DNA of 64,000 nucleotides from Patescibacteria group bacterium (GCA_042570925.1 JBHPFX010000001.1:52397-116396), one strand, 5' to 3'; shown: positions 9,785-51,582, numbered from the stretch's first letter. Numbers and translations: made by a program. The notes: generated from the sequence alone by a model not told the origin.

Positions 9785-10810
9785 ATGGAGCAAACATCTT
9801 TTACTCCTTCTGACAAGGACAAGGAGCAAGCACATAAGGAGGGTGAACAAGAAACAAAACAGGAGACCACCAAAGAAACTCAGAAAGAAATCCACCATCA
9901 TCACTATGGAAAAGGCAAGGGCTTTAACTTAGGGAGCATGTTTCTGGGTTTAGTATTGCTTATTGTAGGTGTCATTTATCTTCTTAGTAACACGGGAGTG
10001 TTAAATGTTGATATCGACTTTGATTTCAGCGTGCTTTGGCCACTCATCATCGTCTTTATCGGACTTGCTATTTTGACAGGGAGAGGATGGCTCTCGGGGA
10101 TTATTGGTGCGGTAGTGATAGTTGGCGTATTATTTCTCATTGTTGCCATGGTTACCGGCTGGATCGATACACCAACGCGTGAAGTTACTACCGACACCAT
10201 CAGCATAGAAGAAGAAGCTGACATAGAATCAGCAAGCTTGAGTATAGCTACTGGTGCGGGTAATTTGACCGTTGCCGGTGGATCCGAAAAACTTATAAGC
10301 GGCAAGCTGGAAGCCAACTTTCTTGAGCTCACCACTTCGTCAAAAGTTGTAGACAGCGTTCAAAAAGTAAAACTTGAAATGGAGGATATCCGGCCGAGCT
10401 TCTTTGGGAAGAAAGTAAATAACCTCGATGTGTTATTAGATTCAAAAACTCCAGTCGAGCTTGATATCGATACCGGAGCGATGGACATGGATTTTGATTT
10501 CACTGAAGTGATGCTTACCACTCTCGATGTAGATACCGGTGCATCTGATTTACATATCATCATGGGTGATTTACTGGACGAAAGCACGATTGCTGTAGAC
10601 GCGGGAGCCAGTTCAATAAACATAACGTTGCCGAAAACAGTGGGGGCAATGATCGACATTGATGCCGGAGTTACTTCGAAGAATTTTACTGATTTTGATA
10701 AGATTGATGACCAGACATACAAATCAGAAAACTACGATGATACTGAAAAGAAGGTTAATATTGAATTGAATCTCGGTGCGGCAGATGTAGATGTAGTCTG
10801 GGCTGAATAA
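9785..10810 (+). CDS. LiaG/LiaF-like membrane protein (DUF4097/DUF2807-like putative adhesin repeats)
   Basis: 341 aa with an N-terminal charged region (HHHH), TM helices and a C-terminal region of repeated DxDTGAxD beta-rich units. It is genetically paired with the PspC-domain gene. Confidence 0.55.
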   Translation: MEQTSFTPSDKDKEQAHKEGEQETKQETTKETQKEIHHHHYGKGKGFNLGSMFLGLVLLIVGVIYLLSNTGVLNVDIDFDFSVLWPLIIVFIGLAILTGRGWLSGIIGAVVIVGVLFLIVAMVTGWIDTPTREVTTDTISIEEEADIESASLSIATGAGNLTVAGGSEKLISGKLEANFLELTTSSKVVDSVQKVKLEMEDIRPSFFGKKVNNLDVLLDSKTPVELDIDTGAMDMDFDFTEVMLTTLDVDTGASDLHIIMGDLLDESTIAVDAGASSINITLPKTVGAMIDIDAGVTSKNFTDFDKIDDQTYKSENYDDTEKKVNIELNLGAADVDVVWAE

Positions 10811-10826
10811 GAATAATTAGTAATAG

Positions 10827-10856
10827 AAAACCGCCCGCTCAATGCGGGCGGTTTTA
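10827..10856 (+). terminator. rho-independent terminator
   Basis: The sequence aaaaccgcccgc-tcaat-gcgggcggtttt forms a perfect hairpin followed by a T-run. Confidence 0.75.
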
Positions 10857-10899
10857 TACTTTGCACTACTCATTAAGGAAGATGTTTCTCTTTTCGGTA

Positions 10900-11016
10900 C
10901 CTTCTTTCTGTGACTAGAAAGAAGCAAAGAGTCCTAGGGTTTCCAATTCGCGAGTGTTTATCGTGCTTATTCATCTAGAAAAGGCCCAATAAAAACTCCG
11001 GACCCCAAGTCTAGGA
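10900..11016 (+). repeat. intergenic repeat family, copy A (core CTTCTTTCTGTGACNAGAAAGAAGCAAAGAGTCC…GGTTTCCAATTCGCG…CCGGACCCCA…CTAGG)
   Basis: It shares about 50 nt of near-identical 5' core and a conserved 3' box with copies at 18631 and 41124. A 10-bp hairpin TTCTTTCTG/CAGAAAGAA lies at its 5' end. Confidence 0.7.
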
Positions 11017-11154
11017 GAATTTTGAGATCAATCCATAAACAGTGCTCCTCCCTCGTTTTATTTAATACTCGTATACAATAAATAATTAATATGTTACATT
11101 ATTCTTATAAAATCGTTCACCCAGAGGTGAAAATACAACAGCAGGGGTGCAGCC

Positions 11155-11340
11155 ATGCAGAGACATACCTTAGCTCATCTTTTGGCAGTAGCTCAGGAAA
11201 GGGGTTTTCGGATGGATCGGACTTCACTCCCTGGCACCGCAGAAATGTGGGATCAGGACTGGGAACAAATGTTCCCCCCTGGGACACAGCCCGGGTGTGA
11301 TGTTGAGAAGGCTTCACTACGAAGGCCTCCCCCATACTAA
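11155..11340 (+). CDS. small GC-rich ORF (61 aa), hypothetical
   Basis: The ATG is preceded by an AGGGGTG SD-like sequence and a hairpin terminator follows at 11361–11395. It lies in a GC-rich island, so it could instead be part of a structured RNA. Confidence 0.25.
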   Translation: MQRHTLAHLLAVAQERGFRMDRTSLPGTAEMWDQDWEQMFPPGTQPGCDVEKASLRRPPPY

Positions 11341-11360
11341 CGAATCTATTGTCAAAGAAC

Positions 11361-11395
11361 GGGGAGATGCGATGCGCGTCTCCCCTTGTTTCCTT
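11361..11395 (+). terminator. hairpin terminator (GGGGAGATGC-loop-GCGTCTCCCC + TTGTTTCC)
   Basis: 10-bp stem followed by a T-rich tract. Confidence 0.55.
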
Positions 11396-11485
11396 ATTCA
11401 AACATGGTTGACATGACGATTTCATTAGGATAAGATTCTATAAATTTAGGAAAAACAGTTCTTATCTCTTTTCACGGGAGGTGCT

Positions 11486-11683
11486 ATGAGCACGCCAAAT
11501 GATAGTGACGCAGTTAAGTTGCGTCAAGTCGGCAGAGTGATGGGAACGGGGGAATCTCCTGGAACAACGATCATGGTATGTTCAGGTTCACCCCCAGGAG
11601 ACCTTTTTGGGGGATGTCCTGTAGGATGGAGCGCCAGTTCCGGCTCTATCCCAAAAGCAACTGACGGTGATAGTCAGGAGTAA
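11486..11683 (+). CDS. small GC-rich ORF (65 aa), hypothetical
   Basis: A GGGAGG SD lies 5 nt upstream of the ATG. It is followed at 11718–11755 by a hairpin that is paralogous to the one at 11361. Confidence 0.25.
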   Translation: MSTPNDSDAVKLRQVGRVMGTGESPGTTIMVCSGSPPGDLFGGCPVGWSASSGSIPKATDGDSQE

Positions 11684-11717
11684 GTCCGTTCATCGAACGG
11701 CGACGAGAACTCACAAA

Positions 11718-11755
11718 GGGAGACGCACTGCACGACGCGTCTCCCTGATTTCTTA
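11718..11755. terminator. hairpin terminator (GGGAGACGC-loop-GCGTCTCCC), probably bidirectional
   Basis: 9-bp GC stem, then TGATTTCTT on the + strand. The stop of the minus-strand gene sits at 11753. Confidence 0.55.
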
Positions 11756-12424
11756 TGTTTGTTGAGCGAGTACATGCTTTTTACGCAACTGCACAACACG
11801 CCATAATCTGTATATAATCGCAGCTATTGCAGTTATTCCGTAAAAGAACCAAAGGTACTTCAAACCAGTTGACTGAACGTCTGATCCAAGATTCCACGAG
11901 TGAATAAAAACGAGTACAAAAATAACGTAATTTAGATAGTGAATTAGTTTCCATTTCCTTCTCAACCACGGGAGTTTCATGAGTAATGCCGTGAGCGCAG
12001 TAATGATAATTAAAATGAATGCAAGAGTTCCAAATAGTGCAAAGACTTTCATCTTATCAGATACATATTCAAAGTTGCGATACTTGGTTAATCCAATCGC
12101 CATGAGCAGGAATAACGGGTGTATAAAAGCAACACTGAGGGCAAATATTCCTTTAATTTTGTGAATGCTATTAATGTAATTAAAAAGCTTTCTAAAAAGA
12201 GGCATCGAAGCTCCGAGCACTATTTGCAGCCATACTAGAAAGAAAGCGTACAGACCAAAAATTGGGAATATGAGATGGGCGAGCGTTTTAAAGTCTGCAT
12301 CCGCAAAAAAAGACAGCCCACCTCGCTCAGCAAAAAACACATATCCGGGAATTACTAGTAGTATAAGAAAAATAATAATCGAAAGTATTTTAAGTACTGA
12401 GCCGGATTTGTGAGCAGTTTCCAT
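11753..12424 (-). CDS. ferric-reductase-like transmembrane domain protein (heme-binding, MsrQ/YedZ-like)
   Basis: 223 aa with six TM helices and conserved His residues inside the helices (HLIFPIFG, HPLFLL, HYLNY, HSWNLG). Confidence 0.55.
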   Translation of the reverse strand: METAHKSGSVLKILSIIIFLILLVIPGYVFFAERGGLSFFADADFKTLAHLIFPIFGLYAFFLVWLQIVLGASMPLFRKLFNYINSIHKIKGIFALSVAFIHPLFLLMAIGLTKYRNFEYVSDKMKVFALFGTLAFILIIITALTALLMKLPWLRRKWKLIHYLNYVIFVLVFIHSWNLGSDVQSTGLKYLWFFYGITAIAAIIYRLWRVVQLRKKHVLAQQT

Positions 12425-18607: not shown

Positions 18608-18630
18608 TTAAAAGATTTCACCTGGTGACA

Positions 18631-18747
18631 CCTTCTTTCTGTGACCAGAAAGAAGCAAAGAGTCCCGGGGTTTCCAATTCGCGGATATTCATCACTCTTT
18701 AATGATCTAGGATTGGCTCAATGGAAACGCCCGGACCCCACCTCTAG
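18631..18747 (+). repeat. intergenic repeat family, copy B
   Basis: CCTTCTTTCTGTGACCAGAAAGAAGCAAAGAGTCCCGGGGTTTCCAATTCGCGG…GGCTCAATGGAAAC…CCGGACCCCACCTCTAG. It lies upstream of ispH, and a TATAAT box follows at about 18766. Confidence 0.7.
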
Positions 18748-18802
18748 TAATGGAATGTGGTGCTAGACTATAATTACATTGGTTGGTACAATATTTTAGC
18801 TT

Positions 18803-33950: not shown

Positions 33951-34027
33951 GGCAGGGTAGCTCAGCTGGTTAGAGCGTGGGACTCATAAGCCCAAGGTCG
34001 TGGGTTCGAACCCCACCCCTGCTACCA
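33951..34027 (+). tRNA. tRNA-Met or tRNA-Ile2 (anticodon CAU)
   Basis: 77 nt cloverleaf GGCAGGGTAGCTCAGCTGGTTAGAGC…CTCATAA…GGTTCGAACCCCACCCCTGCTACCA with an encoded CCA. Confidence 0.85.
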
Positions 34028-34081
34028 AGCAAATAATCTTTTCAAACCTATAACCTAGTATTTAGTAAAAGGGCTTTTTTG

Positions 34082-34158
34082 TGTAGTGGGGGTCGAAGGG
34101 CGCGAGCGAGCGTGGCGCCCCGGTCCGCAGGGGAACCCCACCCCTGCTACCAAGCAAT
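34082..34158 (+). other. tRNA-derived fragment: duplicate of the 3' 25 nt of the CAU tRNA forming an acceptor-stem minihelix (GCAGGGG-AACCCCA-CCCCTGC-TACCA) preceded by a GC hairpin
   Basis: GAACCCCACCCCTGCTACCAAGCAA is exactly repeated about 105 nt downstream of the tRNA. The upstream part is not a cloverleaf. Confidence 0.6.
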
Positions 34159-41065: not shown

Positions 41066-41123
41066 GCATCCGAAGATAGGAACCACTTGATTGGTATTTA
41101 TTAGTTAGAATCCGCTTTTGGTT

Positions 41124-41270
41124 TCTTCTTTCTGTGACCAGAAAGAAGCAAAGAGTCCCGGGGTTTCCAATTCGCGGGTATTTATCATGCTTGATATATC
41201 TAGGAGTGGCTCAATGGAAACCCTCCTCGAGCCCGAGACTCGGAGCCGAGGGCCGGACCCCACCTCTAGG
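41124..41270 (+). repeat. intergenic repeat family, copy C (with internal GC hairpin insertion)
   Basis: TTCTTCTTTCTGTGACCAGAAAGAAGCAAAGAGTCCCGGGGTTTCCAATTCGCGGG…GGCTCAATGGAAACC…[CTCCTCGAGCCCGAGACTCGGAGCCGAGGG]…CCGGACCCCACCTCTAGG. Confidence 0.7.
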
Positions 41271-41635
41271 AGGATTTTATTGAGTGAACTTTTCACGCTG
41301 CTTCACTCAGGATTTAACAGAGCGCCGTGCAGAATATTTAATAAAACTTGACCATATTAGTTGTGGATAAGGGGTCTTTGTAATTGACAAACATTCAAAT
41401 TAATGTCAGAATAATTCCATTATTGCACCTTCGCACTTTCAACAATGCATACTGAACTAAACAGTTCGATCACTAGATCCTTACCGCAACAATAACCGGA
41501 ATTGGGAAAAGCCATGCCAGCATGGCAGAAAGGAGGGTTAGAGTTCTAGAGTAGAGCTTTTTGCATTACCGTAGTACGGTAGGGATCAAGTGAATTCACT
41601 CGAGTGAAACGCTGTTTCAAACGGAGGGTATTACC

Positions 41636-42778
41636 TTGAAGAGGTCAAACCGATTCATTTTACCCGTGATCCTTCTGGTCACAGCCGTTATGACGTTCGG
41701 GACGATGAGCCTGACGTATGCGACGACGACCAAGGACGCGATGAAGATCGAGGTCAACCAAAACGGACCTCCGGTGTCATTCTGTAACGTGCAACACAAT
41801 CCGGCGATCACCGACAACACGACCGCAGTGACGTGCACCGCAAACACAGCCCCGGCCATCGACGAGAAAAAGACGGCCACGTTTGCGACCTGCACGGAAG
41901 GTACGATTGAGCTATCAGCTCCTCCTACTCCCGGCCTGGACGCGACCCGCGCCAGCCCCGACAACTTCTGCCTGGCCAAAGTCGACAATGCCGTGGAGAG
42001 CAATATCGAAGTCTATGACGCGACCGAATACTCCGTGACGAACCGTGCCGGCCCTACGACGACCGCCGAGTGTTCGACCATGGAGAGCAATACCGAAGTC
42101 TACGATGAGACGCCCGTCACCGCCGCGATGAACCGCGCTGGCCCGACAGCAAACTGTGCTGAGAACGTGGCTGAGTGTTCGACCGTGGCGACCGGCGCCC
42201 CTGCCAACCTGGCGACGACTGATTATCCGAACCCCGCGATGAACGGTTCGAGGCAGACGACTGATTATCCGAACCCCGCGATGAACGGTTCGAGGCATAT
42301 GACGGTCATGAAGGTTGACGAGGGCGCGAATCAATCACGTGCTGTTACTGCGACCGCTGACTCGTGGGACGGCACCGATATGTGGACAGTTGAGAAGACC
42401 TGGACGGCGATTGCTGACGAAAATGCGACGCGGACCAACATGAAGGCAGGGCTACCGAACGAACTTGTCGTCGAGCTGACGAGTGGTATCCTGGCCGCCA
42501 ATTCTCGGATGAAAACGACGATCCGTGCGACGGATGTCTCGAAGGCGATGGCGAATGCCGGTGGAATTCAAGACGACGGCGCGATGTGCTGCGGTGCACA
42601 GACCGCCGGTACCAACGTGGAAGATGGCTGGAAACTGACGACGGAAATCGCGGCCGACGCGGCTATGAATACCGTCGTGGAAGAAACAAATCGGGCACAG
42701 AAGCCGGTGATGACGATTACGGACGACGCCAGCTACGCCTATCCGAATCCGTTCAACGCCGGGACGATCGCGGCCTAA
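41636..42778 (+). CDS. GC-rich secreted Thr/Ala/Asn-rich protein with tandem TTDYPNPAMNGSR repeats (probable horizontally acquired)
   Basis: TTG start and a signal peptide (FILPVILLVTAVMTFGTMSLTYA). There are 380 codons with a strong GC3 bias, unlike its neighbours. Overlapping shadow ORFs occur in every frame. It ends …AYPNPFNAGTIAA. Confidence 0.6.
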   Translation: MKRSNRFILPVILLVTAVMTFGTMSLTYATTTKDAMKIEVNQNGPPVSFCNVQHNPAITDNTTAVTCTANTAPAIDEKKTATFATCTEGTIELSAPPTPGLDATRASPDNFCLAKVDNAVESNIEVYDATEYSVTNRAGPTTTAECSTMESNTEVYDETPVTAAMNRAGPTANCAENVAECSTVATGAPANLATTDYPNPAMNGSRQTTDYPNPAMNGSRHMTVMKVDEGANQSRAVTATADSWDGTDMWTVEKTWTAIADENATRTNMKAGLPNELVVELTSGILAANSRMKTTIRATDVSKAMANAGGIQDDGAMCCGAQTAGTNVEDGWKLTTEIAADAAMNTVVEETNRAQKPVMTITDDASYAYPNPFNAGTIAA

Positions 42779-42834
42779 AGTCATTCAAGGCGAATGGCGC
42801 GATCTACAACTGGATTAGTTCTGCATTGAATTTG

Positions 42835-42876
42835 CTCCCCCGCACACATTGTGCTGTGCGGGGGATTGTTTTTTTA
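42835..42876 (+). terminator. rho-independent terminator
   Basis: CCCCCGCACAC-attgtgctg-TGCGGGGG followed by ATTGTTTTTTTAT. Confidence 0.8.
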
Positions 42877-42881
42877 TTCCT

Positions 42882-42990
42882 ACCATCCTGAGGAGTCGAA
42901 CGGAGTGAGACAACGAAGGATCACTTAGTTACCGTAAAACAGGGGGATCCTTCGTCACCATGACTAAAGGCATGGACTCCTCAGGATGGT
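42882..42990. repeat. 109-bp palindromic element with 16-bp perfect terminal inverted repeats (ACCATCCTGAGGAGTC / GACTCCTCAGGATGGT) and a nested 9-bp IR
   Basis: The terminal IRs are read directly. The inner IR is CGAAGGATC/GATCCTTCG. The element lies between a terminator and the next promoter. Confidence 0.6.
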
Positions 42991-43013
42991 TTGTTATTTA
43001 TTAAGCCAATAGG

Positions 43014-43042
43014 CTTGACAGGGACGAGATGTCATGCTAACA
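43014..43042 (+). promoter_or_regulatory. sigma70-like promoter TTGACA-N17-TAACAT
   Basis: It has a consensus -35 box with 17-bp spacing to a good -10 box. It sits about 180 nt upstream of the 43225 gene. Confidence 0.45.
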
Positions 43043-43224
43043 TGTTCGGTCAAATGATCTTTGCCAACTATAAAGGCCTTTTCGCCATTTTACTGTCCTT
43101 ATTGAACAGGGACTATCACACAAATACACCTGAAGGAGGCAGGTTTATATTCGATGTGAAAGTGAATGTGCAGAAGGGTCATTCTGACCACTCATAACTA
43201 GATGAAGAACAGGAGAACTACCGG

Positions 43225-43737
43225 ATGAAGACGAAGATTTGCATTTTTGCGGCCATTGCCGCGTTCTTATGCACCTTTGTGATCTCCAGTCCGGCCATCG
43301 CCGAGACCCACGACGGGTACTCGATCTGGACACTCGATGACCAGGCCGTACCGCCAGCGGATGTCACGGTGAAACAGTTCACCGCAAACTCGACGACTCC
43401 GGCGGCCAGCAATTCTCCGCCGGCCGCGTCCCATTTCGTTTCTTATTTCACTTTGATACAGACGAACCCGGCCGCGTTCGAGTCACCGTACACTTCGATC
43501 ACCTCTCTGAACCGTTCAGGTCCGCCGGCATCCGCGTGCGCGAACTGTGGAACCGATATCAGCGTGCCACGGCCAGCCGACGCCAACCTGTTCAACGGCT
43601 TCTGGCAACCCGACTCCGACGTCCGGGATCAGGCAGAGGTCGACACTTCGACATGCTCAGTGTCGGCCTGTAACACCCGTCGCTATGACGACATTAATGT
43701 GATCCCGATCTCCGGCCCGACCGGCGCCGCGGCCTAA
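43225..43737 (+). CDS. GC-rich secreted Ala/Thr/Pro/Ser-rich protein (probable horizontally acquired)
   Basis: Signal peptide (ICIFAAIAAFLCTFVISSPAIA), 170 aa, GC-rich codons, C-terminus …ISGPTGAAA. Confidence 0.55.
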   Translation: MKTKICIFAAIAAFLCTFVISSPAIAETHDGYSIWTLDDQAVPPADVTVKQFTANSTTPAASNSPPAASHFVSYFTLIQTNPAAFESPYTSITSLNRSGPPASACANCGTDISVPRPADANLFNGFWQPDSDVRDQAEVDTSTCSVSACNTRRYDDINVIPISGPTGAAA

Positions 43738-43756
43738 CGACGGCCGACGCCCAAAA

Positions 43757-43797
43757 CCCCCGAGCACTCTTTGAGTGCCCGGGGGTCGATTTTTATT
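43757..43797. terminator. bidirectional hairpin terminator
   Basis: CCCCCGAGCACTC-ttt-GAGTGCCCGGGGG + TCGATTTTTATTT. The topA stop lies on the other strand at 43809. Confidence 0.7.
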
Positions 43798-43808
43798 TAC
43801 ACCAATTG

Positions 43809-46031
43809 TTAATCAATCAGCTTCTCGAACTTGCATTCCTTGCTTGAACATCTCGCTTTGCCTTTTGCGGCAAAGACCAGGAGGTCTCCCGATTCTGGAC
43901 ATTTCTCACCAGATGGCTTGGACCACAGAGCAAATTTACATGAAGGATACTGGTTGCATGCGAAGAACGTTCTGCCGCGTTTGCTGCGTTTTTCAATTAT
44001 ATCGCCTTTATTACACTGCGGGCAGGTGACACCTGTTTTCTTTTCAATATTCTTAATGAATTTGCAGTCCGGGTAGCCGGTGCATCCAAAGAATTCACCG
44101 AACCGTCCGCGTTTCACCTGAAGCGGTTTTTTACACTCAGGACATTTCTCATCCGTCACTTTTGGTTCTTCCGGCTCACCGTCCCCATTCACGGGTTTAG
44201 TAGTCTTACACTCGGGATAGCCGGTACATGCCAGGAATTTTCCGAACCGGCCCATTTTAATCACCATCGGCTTTCCGCATTTTTCGCATACTTCTTTTGT
44301 CGCTTCTTCAGTAAGCTCTTTTTTAGATAAAGTTTTATCTTTATTCATAAGATTTTCCTTGAAGGGTTTATAAAATTCTTTTACAACAGGCATCCATTTC
44401 TTCTTTCCGGCGGCGATTTCATCAAGATCATCTTCCATATGGGCCGTGAATGTATAGTCGACTATTCTTGGAAAGTGATCAACAAGCAGGTCATTCACCA
44501 GTGTGCCGACGTCGGTTGGTTGGAGTTTTTTTTCTTCTCGTAACACATAATTACGATCAATGATCGTGCTGATGATTGATGCATATGTCGACGGTCTTCC
44601 AATATCATACTCTTCAAGCGCTTTTACCAACCCTGCTTCAGAATATCTCGCGGGGGGTTCAGTAAAGTGCTGAATTGGCTTGATTTCTTTGGAATCTACT
44701 GAATCCTTTTCTTTTACATCTGGTAGCTGATTTTCTTTTACACTATCGGTGTATACTTTTAAAAATCCATCAAATTTAATGATCGATCCGGTTGCCCGAA
44801 AAGTATAAGCATGTTCCTTTGATCCGACATCGATGGTGGTTGAATCCAGAATCGCCTGAGGCATTTGTGAGGCAATCGCGCGCTTCCAAATTAAACTGTA
44901 TAAGCGAAACAGGTCAGGCGTGAGGTATTCTTTTATCTTTTCAGGTTCATTCTTCGGATCTGTTGGACGGATTGCCTCATGCGCTTCCTGGGCCAATCGT
45001 GACTTTGCTTTGTATTTATTAGGCTGAGCAAGGGCGTATTTTTCTCCAAAAGAGGATGTGAGGAATGCTTTGGCTTCATTGAGAAATTTGTCAGCGAGAT
45101 TGACTGAGTCCGTTCTCATATAAGTGATTAAACCAACAGAGCCCTGGGATCCCAATTCAACACCCTCATAAAGCATTTGGGCTGCACGCATAGTCTTTTT
45201 TGCAGAATACCCGAGCTTTCTATTCGACTCTTGCTGCATTGTGGATGTGGTAAATGGAGGAAGCGGGGAACGCTTAATTTCTTTTCGATTTATTGAAGAA
45301 ATTTCATACACAGCTTTTGTCAGGTCGCCAAGTATGTTCTTAGCATCCTTTTCATTTTTAATAGCAAACTTATCAAGCTTTTTTCCATCTTGAGCATATA
45401 ACTTTGCTTGAATTGTCGCTGAATCTCCTTTTTTTTCAAAAACAGCCTCGATTGTCCAGAATTCCTGTGGTTTAAAAGCTTTAATTTCCCGTTCGCGTTC
45501 CACAATTAATCGGACAGCCACGGATTGAACTCGCCCCGCAGATAAACCTCTCGCCACTTTTCTCCAGAGAAAGGGGGATAATTCATATCCCACAAGACGA
45601 TCCAAAACACGCCTCGCCTGTTGGGCGTCTACCATATGTGGATCAATGTCTCGAGGTTTATCTAGAGCCTCATTAATAGCTTCCTTCGTGATTTCGTGGA
45701 AGACAATTCGTTTTACTTTATCTTTTTTCGGCTTGATGGCTTCGACAAGGTGCCAGGCGATTGCCTCACCTTCACGATCTTCATCAGTAGCAAAGTAGAT
45801 GAGATCCGATTTTTTAGCCAGTGTTTTTAGCTTTGTGATGGTCTTTTCGCTGCCCTTTGGTATCTCGTAGGTGGGAGTGAAATTTTTCTTTACATCAACA
45901 CCTAACTTACTTTTTGGCAAGTCGCGAATATGTCCATATGACGATTCGATATGATAATCCTTCTTTCCAAGGAATTTGCTGATCGTCTTGGCTTTTGTTG
46001 GTGATTCGACAATGACGAGATGTTTGGCCAT
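43809..46031 (-). CDS. topA: DNA topoisomerase I
   Basis: TOPRIM N-terminus (HLVIVESPTKAKTI), the catalytic Tyr region, and three C-terminal C4 zinc-ribbon repeats (C.C…C.GYP.C). Confidence 0.95.
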   Translation of the reverse strand: MAKHLVIVESPTKAKTISKFLGKKDYHIESSYGHIRDLPKSKLGVDVKKNFTPTYEIPKGSEKTITKLKTLAKKSDLIYFATDEDREGEAIAWHLVEAIKPKKDKVKRIVFHEITKEAINEALDKPRDIDPHMVDAQQARRVLDRLVGYELSPFLWRKVARGLSAGRVQSVAVRLIVEREREIKAFKPQEFWTIEAVFEKKGDSATIQAKLYAQDGKKLDKFAIKNEKDAKNILGDLTKAVYEISSINRKEIKRSPLPPFTTSTMQQESNRKLGYSAKKTMRAAQMLYEGVELGSQGSVGLITYMRTDSVNLADKFLNEAKAFLTSSFGEKYALAQPNKYKAKSRLAQEAHEAIRPTDPKNEPEKIKEYLTPDLFRLYSLIWKRAIASQMPQAILDSTTIDVGSKEHAYTFRATGSIIKFDGFLKVYTDSVKENQLPDVKEKDSVDSKEIKPIQHFTEPPARYSEAGLVKALEEYDIGRPSTYASIISTIIDRNYVLREEKKLQPTDVGTLVNDLLVDHFPRIVDYTFTAHMEDDLDEIAAGKKKWMPVVKEFYKPFKENLMNKDKTLSKKELTEEATKEVCEKCGKPMVIKMGRFGKFLACTGYPECKTTKPVNGDGEPEEPKVTDEKCPECKKPLQVKRGRFGEFFGCTGYPDCKFIKNIEKKTGVTCPQCNKGDIIEKRSKRGRTFFACNQYPSCKFALWSKPSGEKCPESGDLLVFAAKGKARCSSKECKFEKLID

Positions 46032-50868: not shown

Positions 50869-50897
50869 TTGACAGTCATTTTATCTTATGATAAGAT
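50869..50897 (+). promoter_or_regulatory. sigma70-like promoter TTGACA-N17-TAAGAT
   Basis: It is read directly from the sequence and heads a GC-rich structured leader. Confidence 0.4.
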
Positions 50898-51296
50898 GCT
50901 CCATTCACTAGAAAATTGACACTTCGGCGATCCCTCGTTAACTCGGGATGCTCAGTGTCAACCCGCCATAGCCTTGGCGGAAGTGAGGTTGACAATCTAC
51001 CCGTGCAGAACGCTGCTCGCAAGTGAGTGTGATAGTTCATCCCTCCTAGAACTCTCACATTCATAAAAGTTAAGGTGTTGTGAGTTTTCTCACCTCACTT
51101 TATACTTGTGAGTGGCGTCATGACCGGGTAGCAAAACAGATAAGAGGATCCCTCGGCAAGCTTTCCTCGGCATCAAGCCTCGGGACTGAAGGCAGGGTCT
51201 TCCAAAGACGGTTGGACGGTAGCAATGTTAATGTTCAGCCGTCTTTGTCAATACAAAAACAGCATATTCACGTGTGTCCTGAATGGGAGGGGTGCA

Positions 51297-51515
51297 ATGA
51301 GTGCAACGGCAATGAACGACGTCATTGCATTAATGACGAAGGTTCGTGCAGGTATGGATCCTTTGACGCATGTCGCCTGCGCAGGCGGAAGTGTTCAGAG
51401 TGCCATGGGACAACCGACGGGTGATAAAGGGCAAATCTTGAGTGCGGCGGATATCGCCAGGGAACTCGCAGCCCTTCTTCGTGGATTTGCCGACGAAGCC
51501 GACCAGATCACCTAA
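51297..51515 (+). CDS. small GC-rich ORF (72 aa, Ala/Gly-rich), hypothetical
   Basis: A GGGAGGGG SD lies 6 nt upstream of the ATG, and a strong terminator follows immediately after the stop. The composition is unlike the host genome. Confidence 0.4.
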   Translation: MSATAMNDVIALMTKVRAGMDPLTHVACAGGSVQSAMGQPTGDKGQILSAADIARELAALLRGFADEADQIT

Positions 51516-51536
51516 GCAGGACATCGGTACACCATT

Positions 51537-51582
51537 TACCCCGACCAGTGCTAGTCACGATTGGTCGGGGTGTTTTTTTTAT
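51537..51582 (+). terminator. rho-independent terminator
   Basis: CCCCGACCAGTG-ctagtcacgat-TGGTCGGGG followed by TGTTTTTTTTAT. Confidence 0.8.

Follow-up and report, generated by a model that had tools for sequence, protein, structure and literature searches.

Two candidate small-protein transcription units in a GC-richer intergenic island of a Patescibacteria genome

The window analysed here is a 64,000-nt stretch of a contig of a Patescibacteria group bacterium (GCA_042570925.1, JBHPFX010000001.1:52397-116396), and all positions are counted from its first nucleotide. The island at 11100-11755 is flanked by two convergent genes, a LiaF-like gene (9785-10810, + strand) and a ferric-reductase-like gene (11753-12424, - strand). 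The GC content of the island was 0.49-0.52 compared with about 0.40 nearby, which bears out the enrichment that had been noticed when the DNA was read without further data. Per 300-nt window, the values were 0.507 (11100-11399) and 0.517 (11500-11799), with 0.33-0.42 in the flanks and approximately 0.42 over the 64-kb window. The increase is real and modest, a second island at 41600-44000 reaching 0.57-0.60. Only Beta_propel, PspC, LiaF-like, Ferric_reduct, CNNM/CBS, and Macro domains were detected by Pfam in the six neighbouring genes; among their products, the ferric-reductase-like protein is a membrane protein, and the CNNM/CBS protein is a transporter. Directly upstream of the island, outside both of the units described below, lies copy A of a repeat termed D1 (10872..11048, + strand).

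Two successive units were recognised on the + strand. Unit 1 (11086-11385) consists of a weak, putative promoter found by a consensus scan (TTAATA-16-TAAAAT, 11086..11113, +), an SD-like AGGGGTG (11143..11149, +; anti-SD duplex energy, -6.6 kcal/mol) 5 nt before an ATG, a 61-aa ORF (ORF1, 11155..11340, +), and a hairpin, T1 (GGGGAGATGCG-ATG-CGCGTCTCCCC, followed by an interrupted U-tract; 11361..11385, +; -21.8 kcal/mol, z -4.8). Unit 2 (11408-11746) consists of a sigma-70-type promoter from the same kind of scan (TTGACA-17-TAAGAT, 11408..11436, +), an SD sequence GGGAGG (11476..11481, +; -11.6 kcal/mol) 4 nt before an ATG, a 65-aa ORF rich in Gly, Ser, Pro, and Asp (ORF2, 11486..11683, +), and a hairpin, T2 (11717..11746, +; -19.2 kcal/mol, z -4.7). 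The two + strand ORFs, the SD-like sites, and the hairpins were thus all located where the sequence-only reading had placed them; its C-x10-C cysteine pair in ORF2 is in fact spaced as C-x11-C. The leader of unit 2 is 43 nt long and the stop codon of ORF2 lies 34 nt before the terminator, so that the ORF fills the transcript.

ORFs of at least 30 aa occur in all three frames of the + strand (starts at 11091, 11155, 11297/11486, and 11667) and on the - strand (11117-11425 and 11674-11799). Because 92% of dinucleotide shuffles of the island contain an ORF of at least 55 aa, the presence of ORFs is by itself uninformative, and the composition-corrected codon scores of ORF1 and ORF2 were no different from those of ORFs in shuffled sequence.

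One close relative (L082), whose ferric-reductase-like protein (P0003) is 90% identical to that of the window, was found on a 43.9-kb Logan contig and shared synteny with the window along approximately 20 kb. The comparison of the intergenic regions yielded three conserved blocks, and the remainder cannot be aligned. The first block (10872-11048, +) corresponds to the D1 repeat at 86% identity. The second (11146-11340; 195 nt, gapless, 74% identity) extends from 9 nt before the ATG of ORF1 to exactly its stop codon, and the third (11717-11770; 81% identity) comprises the T2 terminator and its right flank. Upstream of ORF1, the -10 region TATAAAAT of unit 1 is identical in the L082 alignment, and a weak blastn block was obtained (11087-11116 against L082 11409-11380, 73%, E=1.6); the relative carries GGAGG (-10.0 kcal/mol) where ORF1 has AGGGGTG. 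Between the shared promoter region and ORF1, it also carries approximately 470 nt that are lacking in the window, with two more small ORFs (SD energies of -8.9 and -13.5 kcal/mol) for which no similarity to anything was found. Neither ORF2 nor its consensus promoter is present in L082. The comparison with related genomes that had been suggested earlier therefore shows a relative that keeps ORF1 as codons and is without unit 2.

More distant relatives contributed little to this picture. Five loci with ferric-reductase-like proteins 46-47% identical to that of the window (L083, L084, and L089-L091) showed no island and no similarity to D1, ORF1, or ORF2, and those other than L083 were not syntenic. 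In L083, where the flanking protein is 47% identical, the ferric-reductase and beta-propeller genes are separated by 146 nt, with no island between them. A scan of a genome collection with the CNNM neighbour gave a best identity of 40% and no useful synteny.

ORF1 and its L082 counterpart (alignment: MQRLTLATILATARANGLQRDGVLLPGTSEMWDQDWEQMFPEGTHPGCSIEKASDRRPSPD) are both 61 codons long, keep their start and stop codons, show 66% amino acid and 74% nucleotide identity, and share an invariant EMWDQDWEQMFP core. The 50 nucleotide substitutions between them cause 21 amino acid differences, with no gap or stop over the 61 codons. When the same 50 substitutions were placed at random (20,000 trials), 30.7 ± 2.5 amino acid differences arose (minimum, 22) and the frame stayed open in 11% of the trials, corresponding to a probability below 5e-5 for no stop together with at most 21 differences. 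In a six-frame comparison of the conserved block, few amino acid changes and no stop codon coincided in frame 0 only. Nei-Gojobori counting resulted in a dN of 0.246, a dS of 0.773, and a ratio of 0.32, and the corresponding values for the flanking ferric-reductase-like gene were 0.053, 0.368, and 0.14. Since the frame is kept in L082, with a dN/dS of 0.32 and P < 5e-5, ORF1 is, as far as this one sequence pair indicates, a real, fast-evolving orphan protein-coding gene under purifying selection. A preserved frame, start, and stop with fewer amino acid changes than expected, the pattern by which a small ORF is accepted as a gene, was found for ORF1 only.

The island might instead be decaying, functionless foreign DNA, in which ORF1 is a C-terminal remnant, ORF2 a chance product, and the hairpins only the terminator of the convergent gene. 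The frame of ORF1 stays open for 128 codons in L082, continuing upstream into a 128-aa ORF, and a longer gene could have been truncated to give the window copy; nevertheless, the ATG and SD are kept in both genomes, and the homology begins just 9 nt upstream of the ATG. Decay would fit the different content of two close relatives, the lack of homologues elsewhere, the poor codon-usage and AlphaFold2 signals, and the absence of the island from the syntenic junction in L083, but would hardly leave 61 codons without gaps or stops at 26% nucleotide divergence and a dN/dS of 0.32. Chance is likewise unlikely to have brought ORF2, a strong SD, and a consensus promoter together. We consider decay decidedly improbable, and favour a coding role for ORF1.

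Neither peptide resembles a known protein, as had been suspected: searches with ORF1, ORF2, and the small ORFs of L082 against Pfam, NCBIfam, PHROGs, PADLOC, and PDB sequences gave nothing significant (best PHROG match, E=0.25; PADLOC, none), nor did blastn and tblastn searches of phage and plasmid records. Among 1.84 billion representatives, the sole true homologue of ORF1 was the L082 protein (P0033). WD40, Calx-like, and other repeat proteins also appeared, each aligning over 2-9 short stretches, and were set aside as repeat-driven artefacts. A word-indexed protein search with ORF1 produced no candidate, and a metagenome scan with the ORF1 alignment produced three loci that had only DWEQMFPP in common with unrelated proteins, which we attribute to chance. 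In IMG/VR, ORF1 had no match, and ORF2 matched over 14 aa in antisense orientation inside a 1045-aa phage tail-fibre-like ORF; identity beyond this core was random, and the match was also regarded as chance. A similarity of ORF2 to the activation segment of M. tuberculosis PknA (E=0.09) was rejected on the same grounds, being confined to PknA, with a negative result for the Pfam Pkinase model. Exact-protein look-ups of four window proteins and of P0001 returned no record.

The two ORFs also differ in their annotation. ORF2 is identical to the NCBI hypothetical protein ACFL0L_00340, encoded on a 145.6-kb contig, and in a collection of 5.8 billion sequences its cluster has a single member, ORF2 itself. 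Because the same collection holds the neighbouring NCBI-annotated proteins of the contig and ORF1 is not among them, ORF1 is probably missing from the NCBI annotation of this contig. Thus, ORF1 is apparently absent from public annotation, though the sole available comparison supports a real gene, and ORF2 is annotated but is without comparative support. The single-sequence AlphaFold2 models of both were of low confidence (pLDDT of 58 for ORF1 and 54 for ORF2). With correspondingly low certainty, ORF1 may be a two-helix protein of the cytoplasm, with its invariant acidic-aromatic helix EMWDQDWEQMFP as the binding site for a partner, and ORF2 may be a disordered, acidic accessory peptide, this too at low certainty. 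The tryptic peptides expected from ORF1 include TSLPGTAEMWDQDWEQMFPPGTQPGCDVEK.

For ORF2, the argument comes from the organisation of its unit. Perfect TTGACA-N16-18-TAnnAT sites number four on both strands of the 64 kb, and the promoter of unit 2 is one of them. The ORF begins at the first ATG to follow a very strong SD, and duplex energies of -10 kcal/mol or lower are found at 0.9% of all ATGs in the window. When unit 2 was dinucleotide-shuffled, a + strand ORF that was 50 aa or longer and preceded by an SD as strong as that of ORF2 arose in 0.3% of the shuffles. Because promoter, SD, ORF, and terminator are laid out in this way, we rather lean towards translation of ORF2, which is specific to this genome. 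A match to the promoter consensus is also present antisense to ORF2, at 11527-11499.

Unit 2, at about 11443-11746, could also be a new structured RNA, namely a non-coding or dual-function small RNA in which ORF2 is incidental or secondary. Folding was evaluated against a background of 255 windows of 250 nt (mean z, -0.35; sd, 1.34; 5th percentile, -2.65). The first folds, which included the terminators, gave z values of -2.3 and -4.2 for units 1 and 2, respectively. Without the terminator, unit 1 was no better than its shuffles (z -0.29), and unit 2 retained moderate excess structure (z -3.0 on the + strand and -2.2 on the - strand). The + strand value lies in roughly the lowest 5% of windows in the genome, and the stretch at 11501-11750 (z -5.45) ranked 3rd of the 255 windows. 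This folding would suit a small RNA, as would the perfect TTGACA-17-TAAGAT promoter with its strong hairpin, the lack of an ORF2 homologue in the collections searched, the ORF2 pLDDT of 54, and the fact that host genes do not use SD sites. However, the - strand z of -2.2 implies that part of the folding signal comes from base composition and palindromes, no Rfam family matches, and the ORF nearly fills the transcript after a very strong SD, as in 0.3% of shuffles. On balance, an RNA function for unit 2 appears unlikely, though far from negligible, and translation of ORF2 is preferred.

The folding data also bear on the suggestion that the whole 650 nt form one structured RNA, such as a divergent RNase P RNA, tmRNA, 6S RNA, or OLE-, GOLLD-, or ROOL-like RNA. 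With Rfam 15 at the gathering score, three tRNAs were detected in the whole window and none in the island. When 10700-12000 was searched at E<=10, only noise was found inside the island, and none of the 4227 families spanned the region. RT-9 (17 bits, cutoff 46) and WT1-AS_2 (14 bits, cutoff 45) scored in the island far below their cutoffs and were discarded as noise. ARAGORN found no tmRNA, and Rfam and ARAGORN thus agree with the earlier failure to recognise RNase P and tmRNA signatures by eye. The raised GC in an AT-rich genome and the many local hairpins of unit 2 are what such an RNA would show, but a terminator and a consensus promoter, both internal, divide the region into two promoter-to-terminator units, and unit 1 has no excess folding. 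L082 is without half of the region, and the half that it keeps is conserved as codons, within bounds set by the SD and stop codon of ORF1. In the ORF1 block, the substitutions follow codon structure, and the consensus fold from RNAalifold, based on the window and one relative, is weak (-37.7 kcal/mol over 206 nt), with both partners altered in 4 of 46 pairs. OLE, GOLLD, ROOL, HEARO, RNase P RNA, tmRNA, and 6S RNA have in common with the island that they stand out from an AT-rich genome as GC-rich DNA with no apparent genes; the island differs from these large GC-rich RNAs in having no covariance-model match, an internal terminator and promoter, and codon rather than base-pair conservation. The evidence thus does not support a large structured RNA here, and we regard such an assignment as exceedingly improbable.

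Taken together, the island is best explained, at a probability that we put at about 0.6, as a small accessory region with two independent small-protein transcription units, each of which would have its own promoter, SD-bearing leader, small ORF, and GC-rich hairpin terminator. The small-protein cassettes that had been proposed as one of two alternatives are strongly backed for ORF1 (in-frame conservation, dN/dS 0.32) and moderately for ORF2 (layout of promoter, SD, ORF, and terminator). Genes for orphan small proteins of 50-70 aa, which stand alone in intergenic or accessory DNA of bacteria, are likewise monocistronic, as here with an own promoter, SD, ORF of 61-65 codons, and intrinsic terminator, and they are likewise lineage-restricted, fast-evolving, and either missed in annotation or labelled 'hypothetical'. 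The present pair differs in that the host lacks an SD signal, the GC content is approximately 10 points higher, and the content of the locus differs between relatives. A pair of orphan small proteins is by itself a common kind of finding.

Peptide-encoding, dual-function small RNAs include SR1/SR1P of Bacillus, RNAIII/hld of Staphylococcus, and SgrS/SgrT of E. coli. Unit 2 resembles them in that its transcript of approximately 300 nt is bounded by a strong promoter and a terminator, folds better than average, and contains a small ORF. ORF2 fills most of its transcript, whereas in most such RNAs the ORF is a small part, and unit 2 differs further in being without a known base-pairing target, conservation, or an Rfam family.

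Among the specific labels offered for the cassette by the sequence-only reading, the phage-derived one found no significant PHROG, PADLOC, phage, or plasmid match. The toxin-like label is at odds with the hydrophilic character of both peptides and the lack of a PADLOC match, and the RiPP-precursor-like label with the lack of a modification enzyme nearby (Pfam, six neighbouring genes). The small size of the peptides, the tandem units, and the two cysteines and Gly/Ser/Pro-rich C-terminal part of ORF2 would accord with RiPP precursors, type I toxins, or bacteriocin-like peptides. Yet no modification enzyme, transporter, or immunity gene was found within 5 kb, neither hydrophilic peptide has a transmembrane or signal segment, and no PADLOC, Pfam, NCBIfam, or PHROG family matched; among the six neighbouring genes, none was a linked LanM, YcaO, or radical SAM gene. 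Type I toxin-antitoxin and tandem small-peptide modules share with the island the tandem small ORFs, similar hairpins, and an antisense promoter-like site. They differ from it in that the peptides here are hydrophilic, acidic molecules instead of membrane-spanning ones, with no hydrophobic segment in either, that the two ORFs bear no relation to each other, and that the antisense RNA is represented by a single consensus-level promoter match only. Any such function is thus very hard to credit, and the two units are better regarded as encoding orphan small proteins.

In both units, the ORF is followed by a hairpin of the form GGGAGAyGC...GCGTCTCCC, and the exact GCGTCTCCC, with no mismatch, occurs only in T1 and T2 in the 64 kb. 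The U-tracts that follow are interrupted (UUGUUUCCUUAUU and UGAUUUCUUAUGUUU, respectively). Relative to the convergent gene (11753-12424, -), T2 is located 7 nt past the stop codon, and it therefore probably ends transcription from both directions. L082 has a single terminator, which nhmmer aligned to T1 by extending the ORF1 block and which blastn aligned to T2 and its right flank (11717-11770, 81% over 54 nt). In a three-way alignment, it was composed of the left arm of T1 (AGAAC, which lengthens the stem) and the right flank of T2. Since the L082 terminator joins these two parts, T1 and T2 are, judging from the alignments, copies of one ancestral terminator that also serves the convergent gene ending at 11753.

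The likeness between T1 and T2 extends from the hairpin to ...CTTAT only, that is, over the hairpin and approximately 12 nt on its 3' side, so that approximately 45 nt are duplicated. ORF1 and ORF2 are unrelated (blastp, E=8), no similarity between the units was found for ORFs, leaders, or promoters, and a self-blastn of the island revealed no further paralogous segment. The proposed duplication of a whole module therefore holds for the terminator, which is paralogous, and fails for the peptides, leaders, and promoters in pairwise alignment, blastp, and self-blastn. Unit 2 sits exactly between T1 and T2, and it may have been inserted together with the duplication of approximately 45 nt of terminator, or it may have been lost from L082 by recombination between the copies; the two histories fit equally well.

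We also compared the SD sites with the rest of the genome. For 45 long native genes, the median anti-SD duplex energy was -0.2 kcal/mol, and 7% had values of -6 or lower, the same as all ATGs; with alternative start codons allowed, native genes and internal controls did not differ (Mann-Whitney p = 0.99). Among the 45 genes, 10 have a -10-like hexamer whose end lies 6-12 nt ahead of the start codon, versus 4.4% of background ATGs, which suggests that many host mRNAs are leaderless. The five small ORFs at the locus (window and L082) have SD energies of -6.6 to -13.5 kcal/mol, values that say nothing on translation if host ribosomes do not use SD pairing. SD sites were also observed at the GC-rich genes at 41636 and 43225 and at a 72-aa ORF at 51297, and SD-led, GC-richer units are driven by three of the window's four promoters with a perfect consensus. 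Because the GC content of the units is approximately 10 points above that of the genome and they carry SD sites in a host without an SD signal, these units look like acquired genes, foreign or recent, or otherwise atypical ones.

The content of the locus appears to be in flux. Unit 2 is present only in the window and the approximately 470 nt with two small ORFs only in L082, and on this basis the locus reads as a hotspot of small-gene turnover around the conserved ORF1. D1 is a structured repeat of about 150 nt, with three copies in the window, one of which is lacking in L082. Copy A had no Rfam match; a 19-mer of the D1 core found in IMG/VR lay in a purine-rich coding stretch of a phage gene and was not accepted. 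Copy A is 86% identical to its orthologous copy in L082, and its downstream cargo differs between the two genomes. It is a speculative and rather doubtful idea, drawn from three D1 copies and two genomes, that D1 would serve small gene cassettes as a landing site or as a mobile carrier and thus be an undescribed route of gain and loss in the CPR lineage; such D1-linked cassettes would perhaps carry DNA from an SD-using host. SD-led units in a host without an SD signal, with turnover by a repeat, would hint at how reduced CPR genomes exchange small genes. Units of the same design, in which a sigma-70 consensus promoter (or TTGACA box) and an SD site precede an ORF of raised GC and a GC-rich hairpin, were found at 11086-11746, 41300-43800, and 50869-51580 in the window, and two of the three D1 copies are directly followed by such promoter/SD/ORF/hairpin units.

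No Shine-Dalgarno (SD) signal was seen among the genome's own genes, as represented by 45 long ORFs across the whole window; their median anti-SD duplex energy was -0.2 kcal/mol, which did not differ from that of internal controls. A -10-like hexamer ended 6–12 nt 5' of the start codon in 10 of these 45 genes, compared with 4.4% of all ATGs, which suggests that leaderless mRNAs are widespread in this genome.

The D1 repeat family was represented in the window by three copies of approximately 150–180 nt, all on the plus strand (copies A to C at 10872–11048, 18610–18770, and 41100–41290, respectively), and GC-rich, SD-led genes lay downstream of two of the three. The repeat comprised a long invariant core and a perfect 10-bp hairpin, CTTCTTTCTG-TGAC-CAGAAAGAAG, and two segment pairs, GGGGTTTCC/GGAAACCCC and CTAGGAGTGG/CCACCTCTAG, could form a pseudoknot. 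Copy C carried an additional hairpin of approximately 30 nt, and copy A had CCTAGG in place of CCCGGG, with the palindrome retained. The repeat had no match in Rfam, and L082, a syntenic contig from a close relative, lacked the copy located upstream of ispH.

Directly 3' of copy C, a strongly GC-rich island (41300–43800, plus strand; GC 0.57–0.60, GC3 0.72) contained two ORFs of 380 and 170 aa, both of which look foreign by composition and neither of which matched a protein family. Both ORFs were individually equipped with a TTGACA promoter, an SD site, and a terminator in the form of a GC-rich hairpin, and the 170-aa product had a clear signal peptide. A long inverted repeat of approximately 115 nt (42880–42995) separated the two ORFs, the 250-nt window at 42751–43000 gave a structure z-score of -6.5, and the first ORF contained an exact 42-nt tandem repeat at 42214–42297.

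A stand-alone unit at 50869–51580 (plus strand) showed the same design as the units of the GC-rich island at 11100–11755 and had a promoter (TTGACA-17-TAAGAT), an SD site (GGGAGGGG), an ORF of 72 aa (51297–51515, plus strand), and a strong terminator at approximately 51537–51572 followed by a U8 tract. Its leader was approximately 400 nt long and included the most structured 250-nt window of the 64 kb (51001–51250, z-score of -7.4). The unit matched neither an Rfam family nor a protein family.

At the locus of ORF1 and ORF2, the two small ORFs of the 11100–11755 island, L082 carried a stretch of approximately 470 nt (L082 10914–11400, on the minus strand of the locus) that was missing from the window, with a GC content of 0.505 compared with 0.41 for the contig. 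This stretch encoded two small ORFs, each with a strong SD site; the first was 67 aa long, and the second extended the ORF1 homologue in frame by 67 aa at its N terminus. No resemblance to any other sequence was seen for either. In a PDB-wide search, residues 8–61 of ORF2 (11507–11668) weakly matched the activation-loop-to-helix-F segment of Mycobacterium tuberculosis PknA (E=0.09, approximately 39% identity over 54 aa). Because no other kinase was matched, nor was Pfam Pkinase, the likeness was treated as chance, with only a slim possibility that ORF2 is a decayed kinase fragment.

One plus-strand frame was stop-free for more than 5.6 kb (from 56700 or earlier to at least 62300), and probably extends past the window end. 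It likely encodes a giant surface protein, and the seeming lack of ORFs in this part of the window arose because the ORF listing leaves out open-ended frames. Near 34 kb, the last 25 nt of a tRNA-Met gene plus its flank recurred as an exact repeat 125 nt downstream (34008–34032 and 34133–34157), an arrangement resembling the scar of an att site. The window's fourth perfect consensus promoter, at approximately 34591 on the minus strand, pointed into the approximately 180 nt upstream of tRNA-Leu.
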